This document shows positions 7,934 to 50,544 of a DNA stretch of 64,000 nucleotides, piece by piece. A program made the position numbers and the translations under genes. The notes below the pieces were generated by a model. The model saw only the letters and a program-made list of their open reading frames with translations, did no database searches and was not told where the DNA came from. Every line of letters begins with the position of its first letter. Position 1 is the first letter of the stretch. The DNA comes from a virus, in IMG/VR virus record IMGVR_UViG_3300029305_000264, positions 1-64,000 of that record. The stretch is one strand, 5' to 3'.

Positions 7934-9165
7934 ATATAAAAGTTCAGATGAATCCCGGATTCCGGGAAGTGGACCGAAGCAAAAAGCGGTATATTGTCAT
8001 GAAAGGATCAGCAGGATCCGGAAAATCCGTTGATACTGCACAGAATTACATACTGCGATTGATGCAGGATCCCGGAAGAAACCTTGTGGCAATGAGAAAA
8101 TCAGACATCAGCAACAGGGATTCAACCTTTGCTGAATTGACAGGTGCCTTATACAAGATGTTTGGTGATCAATATGATAAGTATTGGAGAGTAAACAAGT
8201 CACCAATGGCATTGACATTCATTCCGAATGGAAATCAGATCATATTCCGGGGAATGAATGATGATAGGCAAAGGGAGAAGCTGAAGTCAATCACATTCCC
8301 AAAAGGGAAGCTGACGGATGTTTGGTTGGAAGAAGCAACGGAATTCACGCAGGCAGACTTGGAAATCATTGATGACCGTTTGCGTGGTGAACTTCCGGAA
8401 GGGCAATTTTATCAGATCAGAATGACTTTCAATCCGGTGAACAAGAATCACTGGATCAAGAAAGTCTTTTTTGATATTCCGGATCCGAATGTGTTGTGTC
8501 ATCACAGCACATATCTTCAGAACCGTTTCATTGATGATGCATACAAGCAGCGCATGGAGCGAAGAAAGATTGTGGATCCGGAAGGGTATCAAATATATGG
8601 CCTTGGTGAATGGGGTGAAATCGGTGGATTGATCCTTCACAATTGGGAAGTGAAAGAGATCTCACAGAATCCTGCCGATTATGATGATTTTGCAATCGGT
8701 CAGGACTTTGGTTTCAACCATGCGAATGCGATCCTTCCATGCGGAATCAAGGATGATGACATCTATATCACGAAGGAAATATATGAGTTTGAAAAGGACA
8801 CTTCAGAACTGATTGAAATGGCAAAGGCTGCTGATATACCACGAAACAAGCAGATGTGGTGTGATTCGGCAGAACCAGACAGAATCAAGATGTGGCAGAA
8901 GGGTGGATATAACCGGGCAAAAGGTGTTGACAAGGGTGGTTCCGGTGGATCCGTGAAGGCACAGATTGATTATCTGAAGCAGCGGAAAATATATGTGCAT
9001 CCTTCTTGTGTGAATACCATCAAGGAATTGCAGCAATGGAAATGGAAAAAGGATGACCGAACAGGGGAATATTTAGATGAACCTGTGGCATTCCAAGATG
9101 ATGCAATGGCGGCCTTGCGTTATGTCATAGAAGGATGGAGAAAGCAGAAGAAATGGATGTATTAG
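7930..9165 (+). CDS. terL: terminase large subunit (PBSX / Terminase_3 family)
   Basis: Walker A MKGSAGSGKS, DVWLEEATE Walker B-like motif, C-terminal nuclease region; ATGA overlap with terS. Confidence 0.9.
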   Translation: MNIKVQMNPGFREVDRSKKRYIVMKGSAGSGKSVDTAQNYILRLMQDPGRNLVAMRKSDISNRDSTFAELTGALYKMFGDQYDKYWRVNKSPMALTFIPNGNQIIFRGMNDDRQREKLKSITFPKGKLTDVWLEEATEFTQADLEIIDDRLRGELPEGQFYQIRMTFNPVNKNHWIKKVFFDIPDPNVLCHHSTYLQNRFIDDAYKQRMERRKIVDPEGYQIYGLGEWGEIGGLILHNWEVKEISQNPADYDDFAIGQDFGFNHANAILPCGIKDDDIYITKEIYEFEKDTSELIEMAKAADIPRNKQMWCDSAEPDRIKMWQKGGYNRAKGVDKGGSGGSVKAQIDYLKQRKIYVHPSCVNTIKELQQWKWKKDDRTGEYLDEPVAFQDDAMAALRYVIEGWRKQKKWMY

Positions 9166-9488
9166 ATGTTTTAGGAACGGAATATACAATTTTATATGAT
9201 GTTCCGGAAGAAGATATGCCTGAAGATTCCGATGGTTGCATGGACCAAAGTATCAAGACAATCAAAATCAGGAAGTTTGAACCATGCAGAAATAGTCTTT
9301 CTGATTTGACGGAATATAGAAAGAAAGTGTTAAGGCATGAAATAATTCATGCTTTTTTCTATGAATCCGGTATATGGAACAACAGCGGAACTTCAGAAGC
9401 ATTCGGGCAGGATGAAACAATCACAGATTGGTTCGCAATACAAGGACCTAAAATTTTCAAGGCATTTTTGGATGCCGATTGTTTATAG
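9153..9488 (+). CDS. small HExxH motif protein (putative zinc metallopeptidase), present only in prophage 1
   Basis: KVLRHEIIHAFFYESG motif; wedged between terL and portal; alternative start 9135. Confidence 0.45.
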   Translation: MDVLDVLGTEYTILYDVPEEDMPEDSDGCMDQSIKTIKIRKFEPCRNSLSDLTEYRKKVLRHEIIHAFFYESGIWNNSGTSEAFGQDETITDWFAIQGPKIFKAFLDADCL

Positions 9489-9502: not shown

Positions 9503-10993
9503 ATGCTTTCGATTGATGAAATAAAGCAGTTTATTGACGAAGACAAGGGTGCAGACAATAAGAAGTTTGCAAGGATCGGTCAGAGATACTACGAAGGAGA
9601 ACACGACATCAAGCAATACCGGGTGTTCTATTATGATGCTGATGGAAAGATTCAGGAAGACACGACAAGGGCAAATGTCCGGAATTCACATCCGTTCTTT
9701 GCTGAATTGGTTGATCAGGTGGTGCAGTACATTCTTTCCGGGGATGATGGCCTGTTCAAGTCGGATGATCCGAAGCTTCAGGAAGAATTGGATATATACT
9801 TCAACAACAATGAAGATTTCGCTTCTGAAGTGGCTGAATTACTCACTGACAGCAGTGCAAAGGGATTCGGCTATTTGTACGCATATAAGAATGCGGAAGA
9901 CCGGATTGCCTTTCAGTGTGCTGACAGCCTTGGTGTGATTGAGGTCCGGGAGAAGGACACCGATGACGGATGCGAATATGTCATCTATCACTATATTGAT
10001 AGAATTGACAAGGGCAAGAAGGAAATCACAAGAATCCAAGTGTGGGATGATAAGCAGGCATATTTCTATGTCATGGGATCTGATGGGAAGATCATTGAAG
10101 ATGATTCCATGAAGATCAATCCAAGGCCGCACACCACATGGAAGAAGGAAAATGATGATTCCACCTATTTTGAAGGATTCGGGTTCATTCCGTTCTTCAG
10201 GTTGGATAACAACAAAAAGAGATTCAGTGACTTGAAACCGATCAAGGATCTGATTGATGACTATGATTTGATGGCAAGCAGCCTTTCAAACAATCTGATT
10301 GACTTTGACACACCGATTCATGTTGTGAAGGGATTCCAAGGTGACAACCTTGATGAATTGCAGACCAATTTGAAGACCAAGAAGATCATCGGCACTGATG
10401 AAAATGGTGGTGTTGAGGTCCACACAGTAGATGTTCCGTATCAGGCAAGGGAAGCAAAACTGAACTTGGATGAAAAGAATATTTACAGATTCGGATTCGG
10501 TTTGAACATGTCCGGACTGAAGGACACTGCTGCAACCACAAACATTGCAATCAAGGCAATGTATTCCCTTCTTGACCTGAAGGCAACCAAGAAGGAAATC
10601 AAGCTGAAGCAGATGTTCCGGAAGATCCTGAAGATCGTCCTTGATGAAATCAACAGCATCAATGGCACTGATTATCAGCAGAAGGATGTGTATTTCAACT
10701 TTGCACATGAAGTGATGTCCAATGCACAGGAGAATGCACAGATTGCATTATTGGAAGCACAGGAGCAGCAGGCAAGAATCACCACTTTGTTGAACCTTGC
10801 GGCAAAGCTTGACAATGAAACATTGATGCAGAATATCTGTGATGTGCTTGACATTGACTATGAAGAAATCAAAGGGAAGCTTCCGGATCCGGATGAAGCT
10901 GAAAATGAACTGAAGGCTGCACAGGGTGCTTTGAATGGGGTGATGACAGATGAACCGCAGACAGAAGGAAATGCTTCAAGTATCACTGAATAG
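9503..10993 (+). CDS. portal protein (SPP1 Gp6-like)
   Basis: Position after terL, ~496 aa, LSIDEIKQFIDED…QRYYEGEHDI N-terminus typical of Gp6-like portals; start ATG 9503. Confidence 0.85.
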   Translation: MLSIDEIKQFIDEDKGADNKKFARIGQRYYEGEHDIKQYRVFYYDADGKIQEDTTRANVRNSHPFFAELVDQVVQYILSGDDGLFKSDDPKLQEELDIYFNNNEDFASEVAELLTDSSAKGFGYLYAYKNAEDRIAFQCADSLGVIEVREKDTDDGCEYVIYHYIDRIDKGKKEITRIQVWDDKQAYFYVMGSDGKIIEDDSMKINPRPHTTWKKENDDSTYFEGFGFIPFFRLDNNKKRFSDLKPIKDLIDDYDLMASSLSNNLIDFDTPIHVVKGFQGDNLDELQTNLKTKKIIGTDENGGVEVHTVDVPYQAREAKLNLDEKNIYRFGFGLNMSGLKDTAATTNIAIKAMYSLLDLKATKKEIKLKQMFRKILKIVLDEINSINGTDYQQKDVYFNFAHEVMSNAQENAQIALLEAQEQQARITTLLNLAAKLDNETLMQNICDVLDIDYEEIKGKLPDPDEAENELKAAQGALNGVMTDEPQTEGNASSITE

Positions 10994-12002
10994 TGAAAAG
11001 GAGATCTTGAAAAAGCTGTCCGAAAACTATCAGGATGCATTGGCAGAGGTTGAAACAAGAATTGCAATCCTTCAGATGCGTGGGGATGCCGATCTTCAAC
11101 ATGTCATCTATCAAACAGAGTATCAGAAGCAATTGAAATCACAGATTGAAACAATCTTGGAGCAGCTGCACAACAACAACTTTGAATCTGTTTCCGAATA
11201 TCTCACAAAGTGCTATGAACAGGGATTCATCGGCACTTTGTATGATATACAAGGGCAGGGCATTCCATTGGTGTTCCCGATTGATCAGGAAATGGTTGTG
11301 GCAGCAATTCAGCATGAAACACAGCTGTCATCGTCACTGTATGTGGCACTTGGAAAGGACACCAAGGAACTTTCCAAGAAGATTGCTTCTGAAATCAGCA
11401 GAGGAATCACAAACAATGCAATGTATTCAGAGATTGCAAGAAACCTTTCCGGATATGCAGGCATCAGCAAGAACAATGCAATGCGTATTGCAAGGACTGA
11501 AGGCCACAGGATCCAAAATAAGGCCATTTCCAATGCACAGCACCATGCAAAGGACCGGGGAGCAGACATTGTGAAGATTTGGAGTGCTGCGCTTGATAGC
11601 AAAACAAGAGATACACACAGATTGCTTGATGGACAGGTCCGGGAACTTGATGAACCGTTTGAAATCTATGGCATGGAAGCAATGGAACCGGGTGGATTCG
11701 GGGAACCTTCTGAAGACATCAATTGCAGATGCCGTTGTGATTCAAGGGCAAGGTGGTTGCTTGGAGAGGAAGAAACAAAATATATCGGTGATACTGACAG
11801 GATGTCCGATGAAGACCTTGAACCGATTGCCGGGAAGCTTGGAATTTCCGTTGATGCATTGCGGCAATACAAGGATGAAATCATTCCGGTGAAGGCGAAG
11901 AACTATGATGATTTCAAAAGGCAGTATGACAAAATATATAATTATCGCAACACGGAAGAATACACGAAGGCACAGGAAAGGATTGCAGGGTTAGAAAAAT
12001 GA
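10950..12002 (+). CDS. MuF / SPP1 gp7-like minor head (head morphogenesis) protein, short form
   Basis: NAMRIARTEGHRIQN…WSAALDSKTRDTHRLLDGQ…NCRCRC core typical of Phage_Mu_F; directly after the portal. Confidence 0.85.
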   Translation: MNRRQKEMLQVSLNSEKEILKKLSENYQDALAEVETRIAILQMRGDADLQHVIYQTEYQKQLKSQIETILEQLHNNNFESVSEYLTKCYEQGFIGTLYDIQGQGIPLVFPIDQEMVVAAIQHETQLSSSLYVALGKDTKELSKKIASEISRGITNNAMYSEIARNLSGYAGISKNNAMRIARTEGHRIQNKAISNAQHHAKDRGADIVKIWSAALDSKTRDTHRLLDGQVRELDEPFEIYGMEAMEPGGFGEPSEDINCRCRCDSRARWLLGEEETKYIGDTDRMSDEDLEPIAGKLGISVDALRQYKDEIIPVKAKNYDDFKRQYDKIYNYRNTEEYTKAQERIAGLEK

Positions 12003-43886: not shown

Positions 43887-43947
43887 TTTGCAAAACTTTA
43901 TAAAACTTTGTGGTAATTTCATGACCGGGATATTATAATGTATAATG
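43887..43947 (+). promoter_or_regulatory. Conserved AT-rich motif pair (counterpart of 7317-7375), here upstream of the GIY-YIG gene
   Basis: TTTGCAAAACTTTATAAAAC and GGGATATTATAATGTATAATG (contains TATAAT twice). Confidence 0.35.
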
Positions 43948-43967
43948 TAAGAAAGGTAAACAAAATA

Positions 43968-44417
43968 ATGTATAGCATATACAAAATTACAAACGATGTG
44001 AACGGAAAGGTTTACATCGGAAAAACGATGAAGCCGATTGATGCAAGGTGGAAGCAACATTGCTACAATGTGAAAACGATTCACAGATTCAAATTGCAAG
44101 AAGCAATAGAGAAGTACGGCGAAATGAATTTCACCATTGAAAAGATTGACGAAGCGGCAACGAACGAAGAAGCCTGCGAAAAGGAAATCTTTTGGATAAA
44201 GCACTACGACAGTATATATCCAAACGGATATAATTGCACAAAGGGCGGCACACACAGCGGCGGATGCCGGAAAGTAAAGAATGTTGAAACCGGAGAGGTT
44301 TTCGACACAATGACAGAAGCCGCAAAAAAGTACAATCGGCGCATACGCGCCATTGAACAGGTTCTTGATAAACCGCACCGAACAAGTGCAGGTTGTCATT
44401 GGATAACAATTACATAA
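43968..44417 (+). CDS. free-standing GIY-YIG homing endonuclease (I-TevI-like, with C-terminal NUMOD/IENR-type DNA-binding region)
   Basis: MYSIYKITNDVNGKVYIGKT…RWKQH…EIFWIKHYDSIYPNGYNCTKGG; C-terminal VKNVETGEVFDTMTEAAKKYN; absent from the equivalent site in prophage 1. Confidence 0.8.
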   Translation: MYSIYKITNDVNGKVYIGKTMKPIDARWKQHCYNVKTIHRFKLQEAIEKYGEMNFTIEKIDEAATNEEACEKEIFWIKHYDSIYPNGYNCTKGGTHSGGCRKVKNVETGEVFDTMTEAAKKYNRRIRAIEQVLDKPHRTSAGCHWITIT

Positions 44418-46214: not shown

Positions 46215-47687
46215 GTGCTTAGAATTGAAGAAATAAAGCAGTTTATGGATGAAGATGCGGCATCCGCAAAAAAGAGGTTGGCGCGGCAGGGCGAAGCCTA
46301 TTACAACGGTGAGCATGACATACTGAACACGCGGTTATTTTATTACAATGCGGATGGAAATCTTGTAGAAGATAAGACAAGAAGCAATGTAAAGATTCCG
46401 CATCCGTTCTTCACGGAATTAGTAGACCAAGCAACACAGTATATCCTTTCCGGTGAAGGCGGCTTTATCCGGTCCGACAAACCGGAGTTACAAACGGAAC
46501 TGGATGCCTATTTCAACGAGAACGAAGATTTTGTTTCGGAACTGTCCGAGGTATTGACCGGATGCCAAACAAAGGGATTCGATTATATGCACGCATATAA
46601 GAACGCGGACAACAGAACGGCGTTTGCCTGCGCTGATTCAATCGGCGTTATTGAGGTAGAAGCAAGATTTGCGAGTGATGAAAAAGAGCATATCATTTAT
46701 TGGTATATTGACCGGGTAGATCGTGAAGGAAAGAGAATCAAGCGCATTATGGATTGGGATGCGGAGCAGGTTGCATATTATGTGCAGGCGGACAACGGAG
46801 AAATCGAGGTTGATACGATGGAACCGATAAATCCGAAGCCGCACACACTGTATGCAGAGGAAGGCAAGGAAAAGACCTACTATGATTCCTTCGGATATAT
46901 TCCTTTCTTCCGGTTGGATGGATGCAAGAAGCAGACTTCCGCATTAAAGCCGATTAAGCCGCTTATTGACGATTACGATGTAATGGCAAGCAGTCTTTCC
47001 AATAACCTTGCAGATTTCGATACTCCGATTCATGTTGTAAGAGGATTCGAGGGTGATAATCTTGATGTATTACAGCAGAACTTGAAAACGAAGAAACTTA
47101 TCGGGGTAAGTGAGGAAGGCGGCGTTGAGGTTCACACGGTAGACATTCCGTATCAAGCGCGGCAGGCGAAGTTGGAATTGGACGAAAAGAATATTTACCG
47201 TTTCGGCTTCGGCTTGAATCTGTCCGGTATGAAGGACACGGCGGCAACAACCAACATTGCAATCAAGGCGGCATATTCCCTGCTTGATTTGAAGTGTTCC
47301 AAGTTGGAAATCCGGTTGAAGCAGTTCCTGCGGAAGATTATCAAGGTTGTTATTGATGAAATCAACAAACAGCAGGGCACCGATTACCAAATGAAGGATG
47401 TATATTTCAGCTTTGAACATGAAATTATGTCAAACGAGCAGGAGAACGCACAGAACCGATTGACCGAAGCACAGAAGCGGCAGACGGAAATCACAACGCT
47501 TTTAAATATTGCGGCGCAGCTTGACAATGAAACCTTGATGCAGTTGATTTGCGAGCAGTTGGACCTTGATTACGATGATATCAAAGACAAACTTCCGAAT
47601 CCGGATGAAGCGGAGCAGGAAGTGAACGCGGCGCAGGCGGCATTGAACAATGCCCCGGTGGAAGAAGTAGGTGTTGCGGTTGAATAA
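46215..47687 (+). CDS. portal protein (SPP1 Gp6-like)
   Basis: Homolog of 9503-10993; GTG start with RBS gaaaggcggtg. Confidence 0.85.
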   Translation: MLRIEEIKQFMDEDAASAKKRLARQGEAYYNGEHDILNTRLFYYNADGNLVEDKTRSNVKIPHPFFTELVDQATQYILSGEGGFIRSDKPELQTELDAYFNENEDFVSELSEVLTGCQTKGFDYMHAYKNADNRTAFACADSIGVIEVEARFASDEKEHIIYWYIDRVDREGKRIKRIMDWDAEQVAYYVQADNGEIEVDTMEPINPKPHTLYAEEGKEKTYYDSFGYIPFFRLDGCKKQTSALKPIKPLIDDYDVMASSLSNNLADFDTPIHVVRGFEGDNLDVLQQNLKTKKLIGVSEEGGVEVHTVDIPYQARQAKLELDEKNIYRFGFGLNLSGMKDTAATTNIAIKAAYSLLDLKCSKLEIRLKQFLRKIIKVVIDEINKQQGTDYQMKDVYFSFEHEIMSNEQENAQNRLTEAQKRQTEITTLLNIAAQLDNETLMQLICEQLDLDYDDIKDKLPNPDEAEQEVNAAQAALNNAPVEEVGVAVE

Positions 47688-49290
47688 ACGGCAGAAGGAA
47701 ATCATGCAGGTACAACTTGACAACGAAAAAGCGGTATTAAAGCAGTTGGAAAGCAATTATGAAGATGCACTTGGGGAAATCAACAGCAAGATTGAATTGT
47801 TGCTATCCCGGCAGGATGCCGATATGCAACATGTTATATACCAAGTAGAGTATCAGAAGGCATTGAAAACGCAGGTGCAGGCTATTCTTGAAACCTTGCA
47901 AACGAACGAATTTGAAACCATATCGGAGTACCTTACAAAGTCCTATGAAGATGGTTTTATTGGCACCATGTACGACTTGCAGGGGCAGGGAATACCGCTT
48001 ATCTTCCCGATAGACCAAGCGCAGGTTGTGGCGGCAGTAATGCACGAAACAAAGCTATCTGAAAGCCTTTATACTGCACTTGGAAAAGATGTTGTGGACC
48101 TGCGGAAGAAGATTGCCGGGGAAATTAGTCGCGGAATATCAACAGGCATGATGTATTCCGAGATTTCCCGGAATATTTCTTCATGGGCGCGTATTCCTAA
48201 GAATAACGCAATGCGGATTGCAAGAACCGAAGGGCATCGCATACAGGAAAGAGCAACGATGGATGCGCATATAAAGGCAAAGGATAAGGGCGCAGATATC
48301 GTGAAAGTATGGAGTGCCGCACTTGATAGCAGGACACGCGACACGCACAGGGAAGTTGACGGAGAAATCCGAGAGGTTGAAGAAGTATTCTCCAATGGTT
48401 TGTTATATCCCGGCGATCCGAGCGGCAGGGCGGAAGAAGTAGTGAACTGCCGTTGCCGATGCAATTCAAAGGCGCGGTGGTTATTGGGCGGAAGCTATAC
48501 CAAATGGAGCGAAGATGCCCCGGTGCTGATTGATGATGAAGGCACAACGCAATTTGCCATTGTGGATGATAGGAATTACGAAGGGTTCAAGAAACAGTAC
48601 AAGCAGGCATCCGAGCGTGTCCGAAGCGGCGTACAAAAGATAAATGATGCTGAAATTAGTATTCCTTTGAAAAAACTACAAAAAAGCGGAATTGAATACA
48701 ATGATGTAAAAGACCTTAAGAAATCACTAACAGATGCCGAAATAATAAGTAGATTGGGCGGCGGTGATATGACAAATGGTTCATGTTCATCGCTTGGGTT
48801 TGCATATATAGGCAATAAGTGCGGATATGATGTCTTGGATTTCAGAGGTGGAGAAAGCCGAAGTTTCTTTGGAAGAAATGGCAACATAAAAGAGATTGCA
48901 GAAATGCCGAATGTTAGAAGTACGATATTAAAAGAATACAATGATTTAAAAGCCGCATCTTCCTTGTTACAATCAATGGAACCAAACAAAGAATATTATT
49001 TATCGACAGGAAACCATGCTTCGATTGTAAAAAGAACAGAATCGGGATATATGTATTTGGAACTGCAATCGGCAACCGGAAACGGATTCAAGGAACTAAC
49101 AACAGATGTTTTGAAAAGAAGATTTGGATGTAAAAAAACTCATACGATTGCAGGCACGAAATATGAATCAACAAATGTATTGATCGAAGCTGAATCACTG
49201 CAAGAAAATGAGGAGTTCAGAAAAATTTTGGGCTATTTAAACACATCAGAAACAGGGCAAAAGAAAGGACTGAAAGGGCATGTTAAGTGA
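47671..49290 (+). CDS. MuF / SPP1 gp7-like head protein fused to an unassigned ~220-aa C-terminal Cys/His domain (candidate polymorphic toxin)
   Basis: MuF core (NAMRIARTEGHRIQE…NCRCRC) to about aa 310, then an extension absent from 10950-12002 with GSC(372)SSLGFAY and GNH(449)ASIV. Confidence 0.8.
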   Translation: MLRLNKRQKEIMQVQLDNEKAVLKQLESNYEDALGEINSKIELLLSRQDADMQHVIYQVEYQKALKTQVQAILETLQTNEFETISEYLTKSYEDGFIGTMYDLQGQGIPLIFPIDQAQVVAAVMHETKLSESLYTALGKDVVDLRKKIAGEISRGISTGMMYSEISRNISSWARIPKNNAMRIARTEGHRIQERATMDAHIKAKDKGADIVKVWSAALDSRTRDTHREVDGEIREVEEVFSNGLLYPGDPSGRAEEVVNCRCRCNSKARWLLGGSYTKWSEDAPVLIDDEGTTQFAIVDDRNYEGFKKQYKQASERVRSGVQKINDAEISIPLKKLQKSGIEYNDVKDLKKSLTDAEIISRLGGGDMTNGSCSSLGFAYIGNKCGYDVLDFRGGESRSFFGRNGNIKEIAEMPNVRSTILKEYNDLKAASSLLQSMEPNKEYYLSTGNHASIVKRTESGYMYLELQSATGNGFKELTTDVLKRRFGCKKTHTIAGTKYESTNVLIEAESLQENEEFRKILGYLNTSETGQKKGLKGHVK

Positions 49291-49489
49291 TTTCTATAAA
49301 ATCAATGACAATGACAAGATATGGTGGATAGATGACCTTGAACAAGTCGGGCAGTTCTTGTTTAGCTTTGACAAAAAGAAAATCTATAATCTATTTGCGG
49401 ACTATCCGCACAATATGACGAAGGAAGAAAAAGAAATCTTTGACAAAGAAAATCCATATTGGAAAGAATTTTTCAAAGACAGAAAGTAA
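49280..49489 (+). CDS. 69-aa cytoplasmic protein, candidate immunity partner of the MuF C-terminal domain
   Basis: Overlaps the MuF stop by 11 nt; no TM; MLSDFYKINDNDKIWWIDDLEQVGQFLFSF…; followed by a terminator. Confidence 0.5.
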   Translation: MLSDFYKINDNDKIWWIDDLEQVGQFLFSFDKKKIYNLFADYPHNMTKEEKEIFDKENPYWKEFFKDRK

Positions 49490-49496
49490 GGTATTA

Positions 49497-49523
49497 AGGG
49501 CAGTCAATCGGCTGTCCTTTTTG
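49497..49523 (+). terminator. rho-independent terminator
   Basis: Stem AGGGCAGTC/GGCTGTCCT (2 G-U pairs), loop AATC, then TTTTT. Confidence 0.6.
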
Positions 49524-49556
49524 TATGCAAAAAAATAAGAAAGTGAGGTAGAAAAG

Positions 49557-49829
49557 ATGGATTTTACGAATGTAGGAACGGTTGTTGCAATCGTGGTTAT
49601 TTGCTATTTGGTAGGATTGCTTTGCAAGCAGCTTCCGAAGGTAAAGGACAATTTCATTCCGTCCATTGTCGGCATTTTAGGCGGTGTTTTGGGCGTTGTT
49701 GGAATGTTTGTTATCCCGGACTTTCCGGCGAACAATGTACTGGATGCAATCGCAGTCGGTATTGTTTCCGGTTTGGCATCCACAGGAGCAAACCAAGCTG
49801 TAAAACAGATTAAAGAGGGGATGAAGTGA
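49557..49829 (+). CDS. phage holin (Phage_holin_4_1-like, 3 TM)
   Basis: VGTVVAIVVICYLVGLLC, FIPSIVGILGGVLGVVGMFVI, AIAVGIVSGLASTGANQAVKQ; directly upstream of a wall hydrolase. Confidence 0.65.
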   Translation: MDFTNVGTVVAIVVICYLVGLLCKQLPKVKDNFIPSIVGILGGVLGVVGMFVIPDFPANNVLDAIAVGIVSGLASTGANQAVKQIKEGMK

Positions 49830-49830
49830 T

Positions 49831-50544
49831 ATGTCTATTAAGATCGGACATGCAGTAATGGACGAAAACGGAAAAGCAGGTTATGGCGGAGAGAAAGCCG
49901 GGGACCAAACCGGGAAAGAGATATGCACCCGGAAATGGTACAACGGCGGATGGAATGTATACCTTGAATGCACAAGCGAAAGACTTGCAAAGAAAGCCGC
50001 ACAGATTATGGAGCAGATTTGCAAGGATTCATCATACGGATATTCACAGCCGCGCAGATGGTTCGGATATAAGTCCATCGTAAAGAATGGCGGTGACATT
50101 TCCAAAGGTTCCGGCGGATTCGATTGTTCTTCCCTTGTTATTTCCTGCTATAAACTTGCCGGATTGAACATTGCGGCGGATGGATATACCGGGAACATGA
50201 GAGCGAAACTTCTTGCAACCGGGAAATTCCGTTTATACCAAGACGAAGAACATCTTGCAAGTGATAAGTTGGCAAAGGTTGGCGGAATCTTCTTGAAGGA
50301 AGGAAGCCATGTTGTAATGGCACTTGAGGACGGAAGCGGAACAAGCAAGATAGACTATTATCCGAAGTACACAGGCAAATCCGGAAGCCTTGTAGATGCG
50401 TTAAACAGCATCGGTGTTGACAGTTCCAAAGGACACCGGGCGCGCATTGCGGAAGTGAATGGAATTGTTGGGTACAGTTACACGGCAGCACAGAACAATA
50501 AAATGCTGAATCTGCTTAAAGCAGGAAAACTTATTAAGATTTAA
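49831..50544 (+). CDS. putative endolysin: NlpC/P60-like cysteine peptidase with C-terminal wall-binding-type domain
   Basis: MSIKIGHAVMDENGKAGYGGEKAGDQTGKE N-terminus common in Clostridia phage lysins; GGFDCSSLV (Cys) and GSHVVMAL (His). Confidence 0.6.
   Translation: MSIKIGHAVMDENGKAGYGGEKAGDQTGKEICTRKWYNGGWNVYLECTSERLAKKAAQIMEQICKDSSYGYSQPRRWFGYKSIVKNGGDISKGSGGFDCSSLVISCYKLAGLNIAADGYTGNMRAKLLATGKFRLYQDEEHLASDKLAKVGGIFLKEGSHVVMALEDGSGTSKIDYYPKYTGKSGSLVDALNSIGVDSSKGHRARIAEVNGIVGYSYTAAQNNKMLNLLKAGKLIKI

Follow-up and report, generated by a model that had tools for sequence, protein, structure and literature searches.

A predicted papain-fold toxin domain at the C-terminus of a prophage MuF head protein and its DUF7675 partner gene

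The DNA analysed here, a stretch of 64,000 nucleotides (nt) referred to as the window (positions 1 to 64,000 of virus record IMGVR_UViG_3300029305_000264 in IMG/VR), carries two prophages, each with a gene for a head protein of the MuF family. In prophage 2 the MuF protein bears a long C-terminal extension, and the end of its gene is overlapped by an open reading frame (ORF) of 69 amino acids (aa). What is such an extension doing on a phage head protein, and what is the small gene beside it for? The initial annotation of the window had regarded the two as a candidate pair of capsid-delivered toxin and immunity protein. Our analysis indicates that the fusion gene probably encodes a polymorphic toxin of the MuF type whose papain-fold cargo is new, and that the small gene, which belongs to the Pfam family DUF7675, encodes the predicted immunity protein.

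MuF toxins are believed to be frequent among Bacillota of the gut and mouth. Both MuF toxins and fusions of MuF to papain-like domains have been known since 2012 and 2017 (Zhang et al. 2012, PMC3482391; Jamet et al. 2017, PMC5576092). In the work of Jamet et al. 2017 (PMC5576092), some two thirds of the C-terminal extensions on MuF proteins had no domain that was recognised, and cargo of the present kind was left as 'C-terminal extension, unknown domain'. What is new here is this cargo family and the assignment of a function to DUF7675 as a predicted cognate immunity protein, the first functional hypothesis for that family.

In its architecture and position, in the polymorphism at its junction and in the sharing of its cargo, the fusion gene corresponds to a MuF polymorphic toxin, and its cargo has an invariant papain-type signature and an obligate small neighbour. 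The protein matched PF04233 with 70.4 bits against a cutoff of 29.6, and its MuF core also matched TIGR01641 (phageSPP1_gp7) at E 7e-9. The gene lies straight after the portal gene in the packaging and head module of prophage 2, in the order Terminase_2, Terminase_3/Terminase_3C, SPP1-type portal, MuF fusion, 69-aa gene, holin, endolysin-like gene, Phage_scaffold and Phage_capsid_4. A matching gene order was present in a public metagenomic contig, L166. Residues are numbered throughout on the 539-aa version that starts at GTG 47671. TTG 47680 and ATG 47704 are alternative starts, which leaves an uncertainty of up to 11 codons, and an identical public protein (P0123) is called from ATG 47704 with 528 aa.

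Several features described by the initial annotation were found again. Both ORFs (539 and 69 aa) and their 11-nt overlap were confirmed in the ORF list. The MuF protein of prophage 1 (10950-12002, 350 aa) was 57% identical to the fusion protein over aa 4-310; the alignment stopped at NYEGFKKQY, and prophage 1 had no counterpart to the remainder of the fusion protein, as had been reported for an alignment to about aa 310. The extension had been called more AT-rich than the MuF core. Its GC content (Table 1) compared with 0.45-0.52 in the MuF part and the flanks of the cassette, a drop from ~0.47 to ~0.35, and a difference of about 10 GC points from the rest of the gene argues for a horizontal origin of the cassette. 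The intrinsic terminator that had been placed after the small ORF was also found, as a hairpin with its stem at 49496-49519 followed by TTTTGT.

The junction between head protein and cargo was located by alignment with close MuF homologues. The linker was conserved as NY(E/D)xFKKQY-KQASERVR..QK(I/M)ND up to about aa 326 (nt ~48648), after which the sequences diverged abruptly, and the end of the conservation matched the position of the drop in GC content. Short MuF proteins terminated a few residues past the linker, and some close homologues ended without any extension past it. When only the MuF part (aa 12-320) was searched, there were 4,403 matches at E ≤ 1e-20; the closest relatives were 70-93% identical and 319-541 aa long. 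The C-termini of ten close relatives were scanned, and CdiA_C tRNase, ART-PolyVal, DUF6883, Ntox50, Gln_amidase, ADPrib_exo_Tox and ART domains were detected in them; three had no Pfam match. The survey of alternative C-termini at this junction that the initial annotation had proposed therefore had a clear outcome: MuF proteins 70-93% identical to that of prophage 2 bear other toxin domains past QK(I/M)ND. In these alignments, the linker is the point at which cargo cassettes are exchanged.

The C-terminal domain, whether searched as a single sequence or as a profile, matched nothing in Pfam, NCBIfam, PADLOC or the sequences of the PDB, and a Pfam search relaxed to E 10 over 31 family members returned scattered noise only. 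Two PHROG families did match: phrog_7104 (E 3.5e-57), annotated as of unknown function, and phrog_4728 in its C-terminal part. By word-indexed search, 244 homologues were found at 45-59% identity. When 1.84 billion cluster representatives were searched exhaustively with a profile, 1,065 matched at E ≤ 1e-3, 840 of them at E ≤ 1e-30, and the matching proteins were 224-1,016 aa long. That the initial annotation could not place the domain in a named toxin family is borne out for Pfam and NCBIfam, but the domain is not rare: it corresponds to two existing phrog families and has about 1,065 members, counted as clusters at 50% identity. The present work defines one of the uncharacterised MuF cargo families. 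In the literature searched on DUF7675, on MuF proteins with papain-like toxins and on PF15644, this toxin family was not described.

The domain reached the exact C-terminus of the protein in 247 of 250 retrieved homologues, and it was found behind several kinds of N-terminal part. Among 85 representatives, the N-terminal Pfam families were Phage_Mu_F (24), Phage_min_cap2, the MuF2 of Jamet et al. (8), VG15 (2) and XkdF-type protease (1), with an ADP-ribosyltransferase domain additionally present in two; most of the rest had no Pfam domain. Searches of cultured and deposited phages with tblastn found the domain in Butyrivibrio virus Ceridwen, where MuF fusion QHJ73732.1 is paired with QHJ73733.1, and in 16 Streptococcus phages and prophages from S. 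pneumoniae, S. equi, S. gordonii, S. intermedius and S. equinus, and it was labelled hypothetical in all of them. Further carriers were phages or prophages of S. mitis and S. suis and assemblies of Fusobacterium, Prevotella, Megasphaera and rumen Butyrivibrio. Species-representative genomes with the domain belonged to Bacillota, Bacteroidota, Fusobacteriota, Spirochaetota and Fibrobacterota, together with one Eggerthella metagenome-assembled genome. Many other homologues are 'stand-alone' proteins of 200-300 aa. On one phage contig (L003:4962-6669), two ORFs in different frames, with an overlap of ~40-55 nt, encode MuF (324 aa) and the toxin domain (223 aa) separately. The gene may be split there, a programmed frameshift may yield a small number of fusion copies, or the assembly may be in error.

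An AlphaFold2 model of the domain, built from an alignment of 31 sequences, had a mean predicted local distance difference test (pLDDT) of 90.2 and a predicted template modelling score (pTM) of 0.89. In the model, a helix begins with C372 (domain residue 53), H449 (domain residue 130) opens a strand of residues 130-137, and E464 (domain residue 145), 15 residues past the His, stands at the end of the next strand. This Cys-helix/His-strand/Glu arrangement appears to be the classic papain layout, and C372, H449 and E464 are predicted to lie close together in space. Nearly all of the top PDB fold matches in Foldseek were papain-fold thiol enzymes: UfSP, a Josephin-type ubiquitin clippase, the protease-like domain of PaTox, the OspI deamidase, staphopain, the herpesvirus M48 deubiquitinase, Cif and RavD. 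Against the predicted viral structures of BFVD, the best match was a true homologue, and the next were 'Papain fold toxin 1, glutamine deamidase' (E 3e-4, TM score 0.46) and a MuF/protease fusion of an Arthrobacter phage. The initial annotation had read C372 from a tgt codon and H449 from a cat codon, had found their order and spacing to fit a papain/transglutaminase-like thiol enzyme, and had asked whether they are conserved. The codons were read at those positions (Table 1), the model and its fold matches agree with the enzyme class, and C372, H449, E464 and Q466 were invariant in all 378 sequences that cover the column, out of 379 unique domain sequences.

D366, T368, D390, R392, S396, R484, F485, N524 and T525 were also invariant in the 378 covering sequences. 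In addition, the domain has an invariant extreme C-terminal tail, N-T-x4-Q-x-K-G-x-x-G-x-[VA]-[KR]. The explanation of this tail as a mere ribosome-binding-site constraint of the overlapping gene was rejected, because the tail is equally conserved where the partner gene is convergent and does not overlap it.

Among named families, the nearest relative of the domain, as far as the models can tell, is Tox-PL1. Tox-PL1 was defined by an NC-H-DxQ signature and is fused to MuF carriers and to WXG carriers of the type VII secretion system (T7SS) (Zhang et al. 2012, PMC3482391). It is now the Pfam family Gln_amidase (PF15644), which a 2023 classification groups with OspI (PMC10318531). The two are alike in papain-like fold, in C-terminal position as a toxin and in the use of MuF and WXG carriers. 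In pairwise profile alignments, the Cys, GYDV, the His and YL(D/E)xQS stood in register with those of the PF15644-bearing MuF proteins P0440 and P0483, and the E464-L-Q466 motif aligned with YLDPQS/IYDAQS of Tox-PL1 proteins. The signature of the window family, SC-H-ExQ, has the same order as NC-H-DxQ and is similar but not identical, the acid residue being Glu instead of Asp. At about 210 aa, the window domain is about double the ~114 positions of the Tox-PL1 profile; unlike Tox-PL1, it has an extra N-terminal helical part and the invariant tail NT..Q.KG..G. The partner of Tox-PL1 is Imm35, whereas that of the window domain is DUF7675. The domain therefore resembles Tox-PL1 in fold, signature and deployment, membership not being demonstrated. 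Because of its resemblance to MuF-fused Tox-PL1, the cargo is regarded as a new family of a known type and not as a new type.

The initial annotation could place the small gene in no named toxin or immunity family. A family for it does exist: its 69-aa product matched Pfam DUF7675 (PF24723) at E 3.1e-35 with 120.3 bits (cutoff 27) over profile positions 1-65 of 65, and it also corresponds to phrog_6473. Neither the PF24723 nor the phrog_6473 entry gives a function, and DUF7675 was not mentioned in the literature searched for the family. The product is highly charged and has no hydrophobic stretch, in agreement with the earlier remark that it lacks a transmembrane segment. At least 1,376 clusters at 90% identity were counted for DUF7675, typically 70-85% identical to the window protein, with named sources that include Fusobacterium, Eubacteriales and Saccharibacteria. 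A model of the protein (pLDDT 82) shows a small sheet followed by two helices; Foldseek found no meaningful PDB neighbour for it (best E 5).

DUF7675 abutted the toxin domain in all of 86 genome loci (85 fetched loci with the toxin domain and the window), whatever the carrier. In 74 of them it is directly downstream on the same strand, usually with its ATG 11 nt before the toxin stop. In the other 12, mostly from Bacteroidota and Fibrobacter (L012, L017, L020, L023, L026, L034, L046, L059, L062, L063, L068 and L085), it is convergent and abuts the toxin stop; from this orientation, it is presumably expressed independently of the late operon. The reverse search covered 80 DUF7675 loci in IMG/VR. 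The toxin was adjacent in 72 (64 co-directional, 8 convergent), six of the remaining loci were at contig ends and two were orphans, so that the toxin was adjacent in 72 of 74 assessable loci. Further convergent loci are L122-L125, L137, L139, L142, L149 and L151. The orphans are on viral contigs L140 and L150, with room on both sides and no toxin domain detected, and may be orphan immunity genes. One FtsK-type locus (L066:3777-6781) contains two toxin/DUF7675 pairs in tandem. Over the 136 loci in which both partners are complete, pairwise identities of the toxin core and of DUF7675 correlated with r = 0.71. The pair of ORFs is beyond chance, because the two products have 244 and at least 1,376 homologues and the overlap recurs in dozens of unrelated loci. 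The presence of an adjacent immunity gene, a feature of MuF polymorphic toxins, is seen here as genomic coupling only.

Table 1. Coordinates in the window of the MuF fusion gene, its domains and predicted catalytic codons, and the partner gene.
Feature	Position	Strand	Details
MuF-toxin fusion gene	47671..49290	+	539 aa from GTG 47671; ORF list
MuF (PF04233, Phage_Mu_F) core	48106..48459	+	aa 146-263; Pfam E 2.7e-19
Conserved pre-toxin linker NYEGFKKQY-KQASERVRSGVQKIND	48574..48648	+	aa 302-326; alignment with 14 close MuF homologues
C-terminal papain-fold domain, predicted toxin	48649..49287	+	aa 327-539; phrog_7104/phrog_4728
C372 codon (tgt), predicted nucleophile	48784..48786	+	helix N-terminus in GGDxTxGSCSS
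H449 codon (cat), predicted general base	49015..49017	+	first residue of beta-strand
E464-L-Q466 codons (YLELQ), predicted third triad residue and partner	49060..49068	+	equivalent to Tox-PL1 DxQ
DUF7675 gene (69 aa), predicted cognate immunity protein	49280..49489	+	start overlaps toxin stop by 11 nt
AT-rich cassette (predicted toxin domain and immunity gene)	48550..49600		composition profile, GC 0.35-0.36
Intrinsic terminator closing the cassette	49496..49526	+	10-bp stem (5 GC pairs), 4-nt loop, T-run

The cargo is shared with a second delivery system. In 13 of the 86 loci, the toxin is a protein of ~330-400 aa encoded directly downstream of an FtsK/SpoIIIE ATPase of 909-1,460 aa. In these loci, no relatives of the window phage's portal and terminase were detected. 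The N-termini of the FtsK-type toxins matched WXG100 with at best 26.4 bits (E 8e-6), just under the Pfam cutoff of 27.3; five of 11 had WXG100 matches at E ≤ 0.1, and one matched WXG100_2. Small helical proteins adjoin these toxins, and sister proteins end in WHH/Colicin-DNase or Peptidase_C39_2 domains. This is how T7SS-type polymorphic toxin arrays are organised, and the domain is found on WXG100-like and Phage_min_cap2 N-termini as well as on MuF. Like the WXG100/LXG toxins of the T7SS in Bacillota, these homologues combine WXG100-like N-termini with an FtsK/SpoIIIE protein beside them, downstream immunity genes and nuclease-ended sisters. They differ in that the WXG100 matches are below the cutoff and no other Ess components were identified in the loci, and the window copy rides on a phage head protein instead of the signal domain of a secretion system. 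Genes encoding a PP2C phosphatase and a vWA protein flank the FtsK/WXG100-type loci L001 and L042. One further ORF of L042 resembles a Ser/Thr kinase by eye, and L001 has TerY_C, AIM24, transglutaminase-core and ATP-grasp genes. These flanks are reminiscent of the 'TerY-P triad' and Ter-associated conflict systems.

SPP1 gp7 is packaged in the capsid and exits with the DNA. The N-terminal 310 aa of the fusion are an SPP1-gp7/MuF head protein, to which the linker joins an exchangeable C-terminal cassette. By analogy, the window locus would work as follows. A few copies of the fusion protein would be packaged in the capsid through the interaction of MuF with the portal and would leave with the DNA. 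DUF7675, presumably translated in coupling with the toxin gene, would bind the enzyme in the cytoplasm of the producing cell and, as its inhibitor, prevent harm there. After the next infection, the enzyme would be active in the cytoplasm of the newly infected cell, except where this cell makes DUF7675 itself. The enzyme may be a distant, Tox-PL1-like relative of glutamine deamidases and peptidases such as OspI. It would work by hydrolysis through a C372 thioester and would either deamidate a glutamine or cut a peptide bond in some conserved target in the cytoplasm; confidence in any one substrate is much lower than in the toxin and immunity reading. The idea of delivery by the capsid also follows the models in PMC5576092 and PMC3482391.

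The locus shares with the MuF polymorphic toxins (PMC3482391, PMC5576092, PMC11699363) a MuF N-terminus after the portal, an exchangeable C-terminus past the junction, an adjacent small gene of predicted immunity function, cargo common to other delivery systems and occurrence in Bacillota prophages. It differs from the characterised members Apk2 and Bxa in its cargo, which is not a (p)ppApp synthetase and not an ADP-ribosyltransferase, and in its single, non-enzymatic predicted immunity gene. The staphopain-staphostatin system, which was among the fold matches, is similar in that a papain-fold thiol enzyme stands beside a small cytoplasmic protein presumed to block the enzyme in its producer. 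However, staphostatin is a beta-barrel of ~110 aa and DUF7675 a mixed sheet/helix protein of 69 aa without a PDB neighbour, and there is no sequence relationship between them.

Several results weigh against the toxin and immunity reading. PF15644 was matched neither by the window domain nor by the 31 members even at E 10, whereas the controls P0440 and P0483 matched. Comparison with Tox-PL1 in hhalign gave a probability of 2.1-2.4%, in a test that is weak given a shallow Tox-PL1 profile of 1-2 sequences. With no PF15644 match and no significant hhalign score, the domain was not filed as a Tox-PL1 member. The Foldseek matches in the PDB were themselves weak (best E 3e-3 with a TM score of about 0.3, range E 3e-3 to 0.1). 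Because of these fold matches and the failed sequence and profile tests, the chemistry of the enzyme is only guessed. Promoter-like sites within the toxin gene that could drive DUF7675 were no commoner than in shuffled sequence. DUF7675 was more conserved than its presumed toxin, with a mean identity of 62% as against 49% and a higher value in 94% of 9,180 locus pairs, which is atypical for an immunity protein and could point to another role. Finally, Apk2 and Bxa were the only characterised MuF toxins according to a 2024 paper (PMC11699363).

The FtsK/WXG100 loci, the terminal position of the domain and the convergent and orphan copies of DUF7675 weigh, for their part, against the rival readings. 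One of these takes the domain for an injected effector of host takeover or anti-defence that acts early for the phage, with DUF7675 as a stoichiometric inhibitor that silences it during assembly. Conservation across phyla (45-59% for the domain, 70-85% for DUF7675) suggests a fixed universal target and not an arms race between strains, the gene sits in a late structural operon, and Jamet et al. (PMC5576092) proposed mildly toxic MuF cargo that steers lysis versus lysogeny. Against this stand the 13 FtsK/WXG100 loci, where domain and partner lie beside nuclease-tipped sisters in the signature of an interbacterial toxin array, and PADLOC and the other evidence gave no link to defence. We consider a takeover effector unlikely, although for the phage-borne copies it and a toxin are not mutually exclusive.

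It is possible, with a similarly low likelihood, that the pair differs from an ordinary, fast-evolving couple of toxin and immunity protein, and that the domain represents a new papain-fold family with a chemistry of its own, such as deamidation or cleavage, directed at one universal cytoplasmic target and delivered by capsids and T7SS-like systems in at least five phyla. DUF7675 would then be an inhibitor that mimics the substrate, and the tail NT..Q.KG..G would serve in activation or delivery. The high conservation of DUF7675 and the many invariant polar residues of the enzyme suggest an interface that includes the rigid active site.

The same conservation of DUF7675 favours a third reading, in which the protein does not inhibit the enzyme but is required by it as a chaperone for folding or export, or as an activating cofactor. 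Its very small size, its many aromatic residues and the lack of a similar fold in the PDB point the same way. However, DUF7675 tracks the C-terminal domain in three delivery modules that are unrelated to one another. Export chaperones of known systems track the N-terminal module instead, and DUF7675 behaves in this as expected of an immunity protein. In 20 convergent loci its transcription is independent of the toxin, which fits a protective factor better than a co-translational chaperone, and the two orphan copies are as expected for immunity genes. A chaperone or cofactor is thus quite improbable. A peptidase that cuts MuF, scaffold or co-packaged proteins during assembly or ejection, with DUF7675 as a temporary staphostatin-like inhibitor, is very doubtful too: Zhang et al. 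2012 (PMC3482391) raised such a role for MuF-fused Tox-PL1, staphopain-staphostatin complexes are among the fold matches and a few representatives carry a further ADP-ribosyltransferase (2/85) or XkdF-type protease (1/85) domain, but the domain is terminal and usually the sole catalytic one, there is nothing for the WXG100-type carriers to release, heads of the same type are built by prophage 1 and many close relatives with a short MuF that lacks the domain, and the cassette is interchangeable with nucleases and ADP-ribosyltransferases.

The loci compared here show that one cassette moves between phage capsids and T7SS-like loci. Tractable systems for the question of whether head-packaged enzymes are injected at all, and how they act, exist in the cultured phage Butyrivibrio virus Ceridwen and in pneumococcal prophages such as IPP67 or phage 23782. 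The findings should be useful to researchers on polymorphic toxins and prophages, whom the underlying logic would not surprise.

Some neighbouring genes of the two prophages were also recorded. No close relative was found by megablast of the module against cultured phage genomes. In prophage 1, an additional ORF of 117 aa with an HEIIH (HExxH-like) motif lies between the large terminase and portal genes (9135-9488); it had no Pfam match, and no counterpart was seen at the equivalent place in prophage 2. The holin gene of prophage 2 (49557-49829; PF16079, E 1e-24) is located within the head module, between the toxin/DUF7675 pair and the scaffold gene, and beside it is the gene for the endolysin-like protein (49831-50544; PF25309 ELLD, E 2e-53, with a weak NlpC/P60 match). 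A gap of 270 nt is all that prophage 1 has at this position, and contig L166 shares the arrangement of prophage 2. In prophage 2, an ORF of 159 aa (43938-44417) that immediately precedes the small terminase gene contains a GIY-YIG nuclease domain (E 2.6e-10) and may encode a homing endonuclease.

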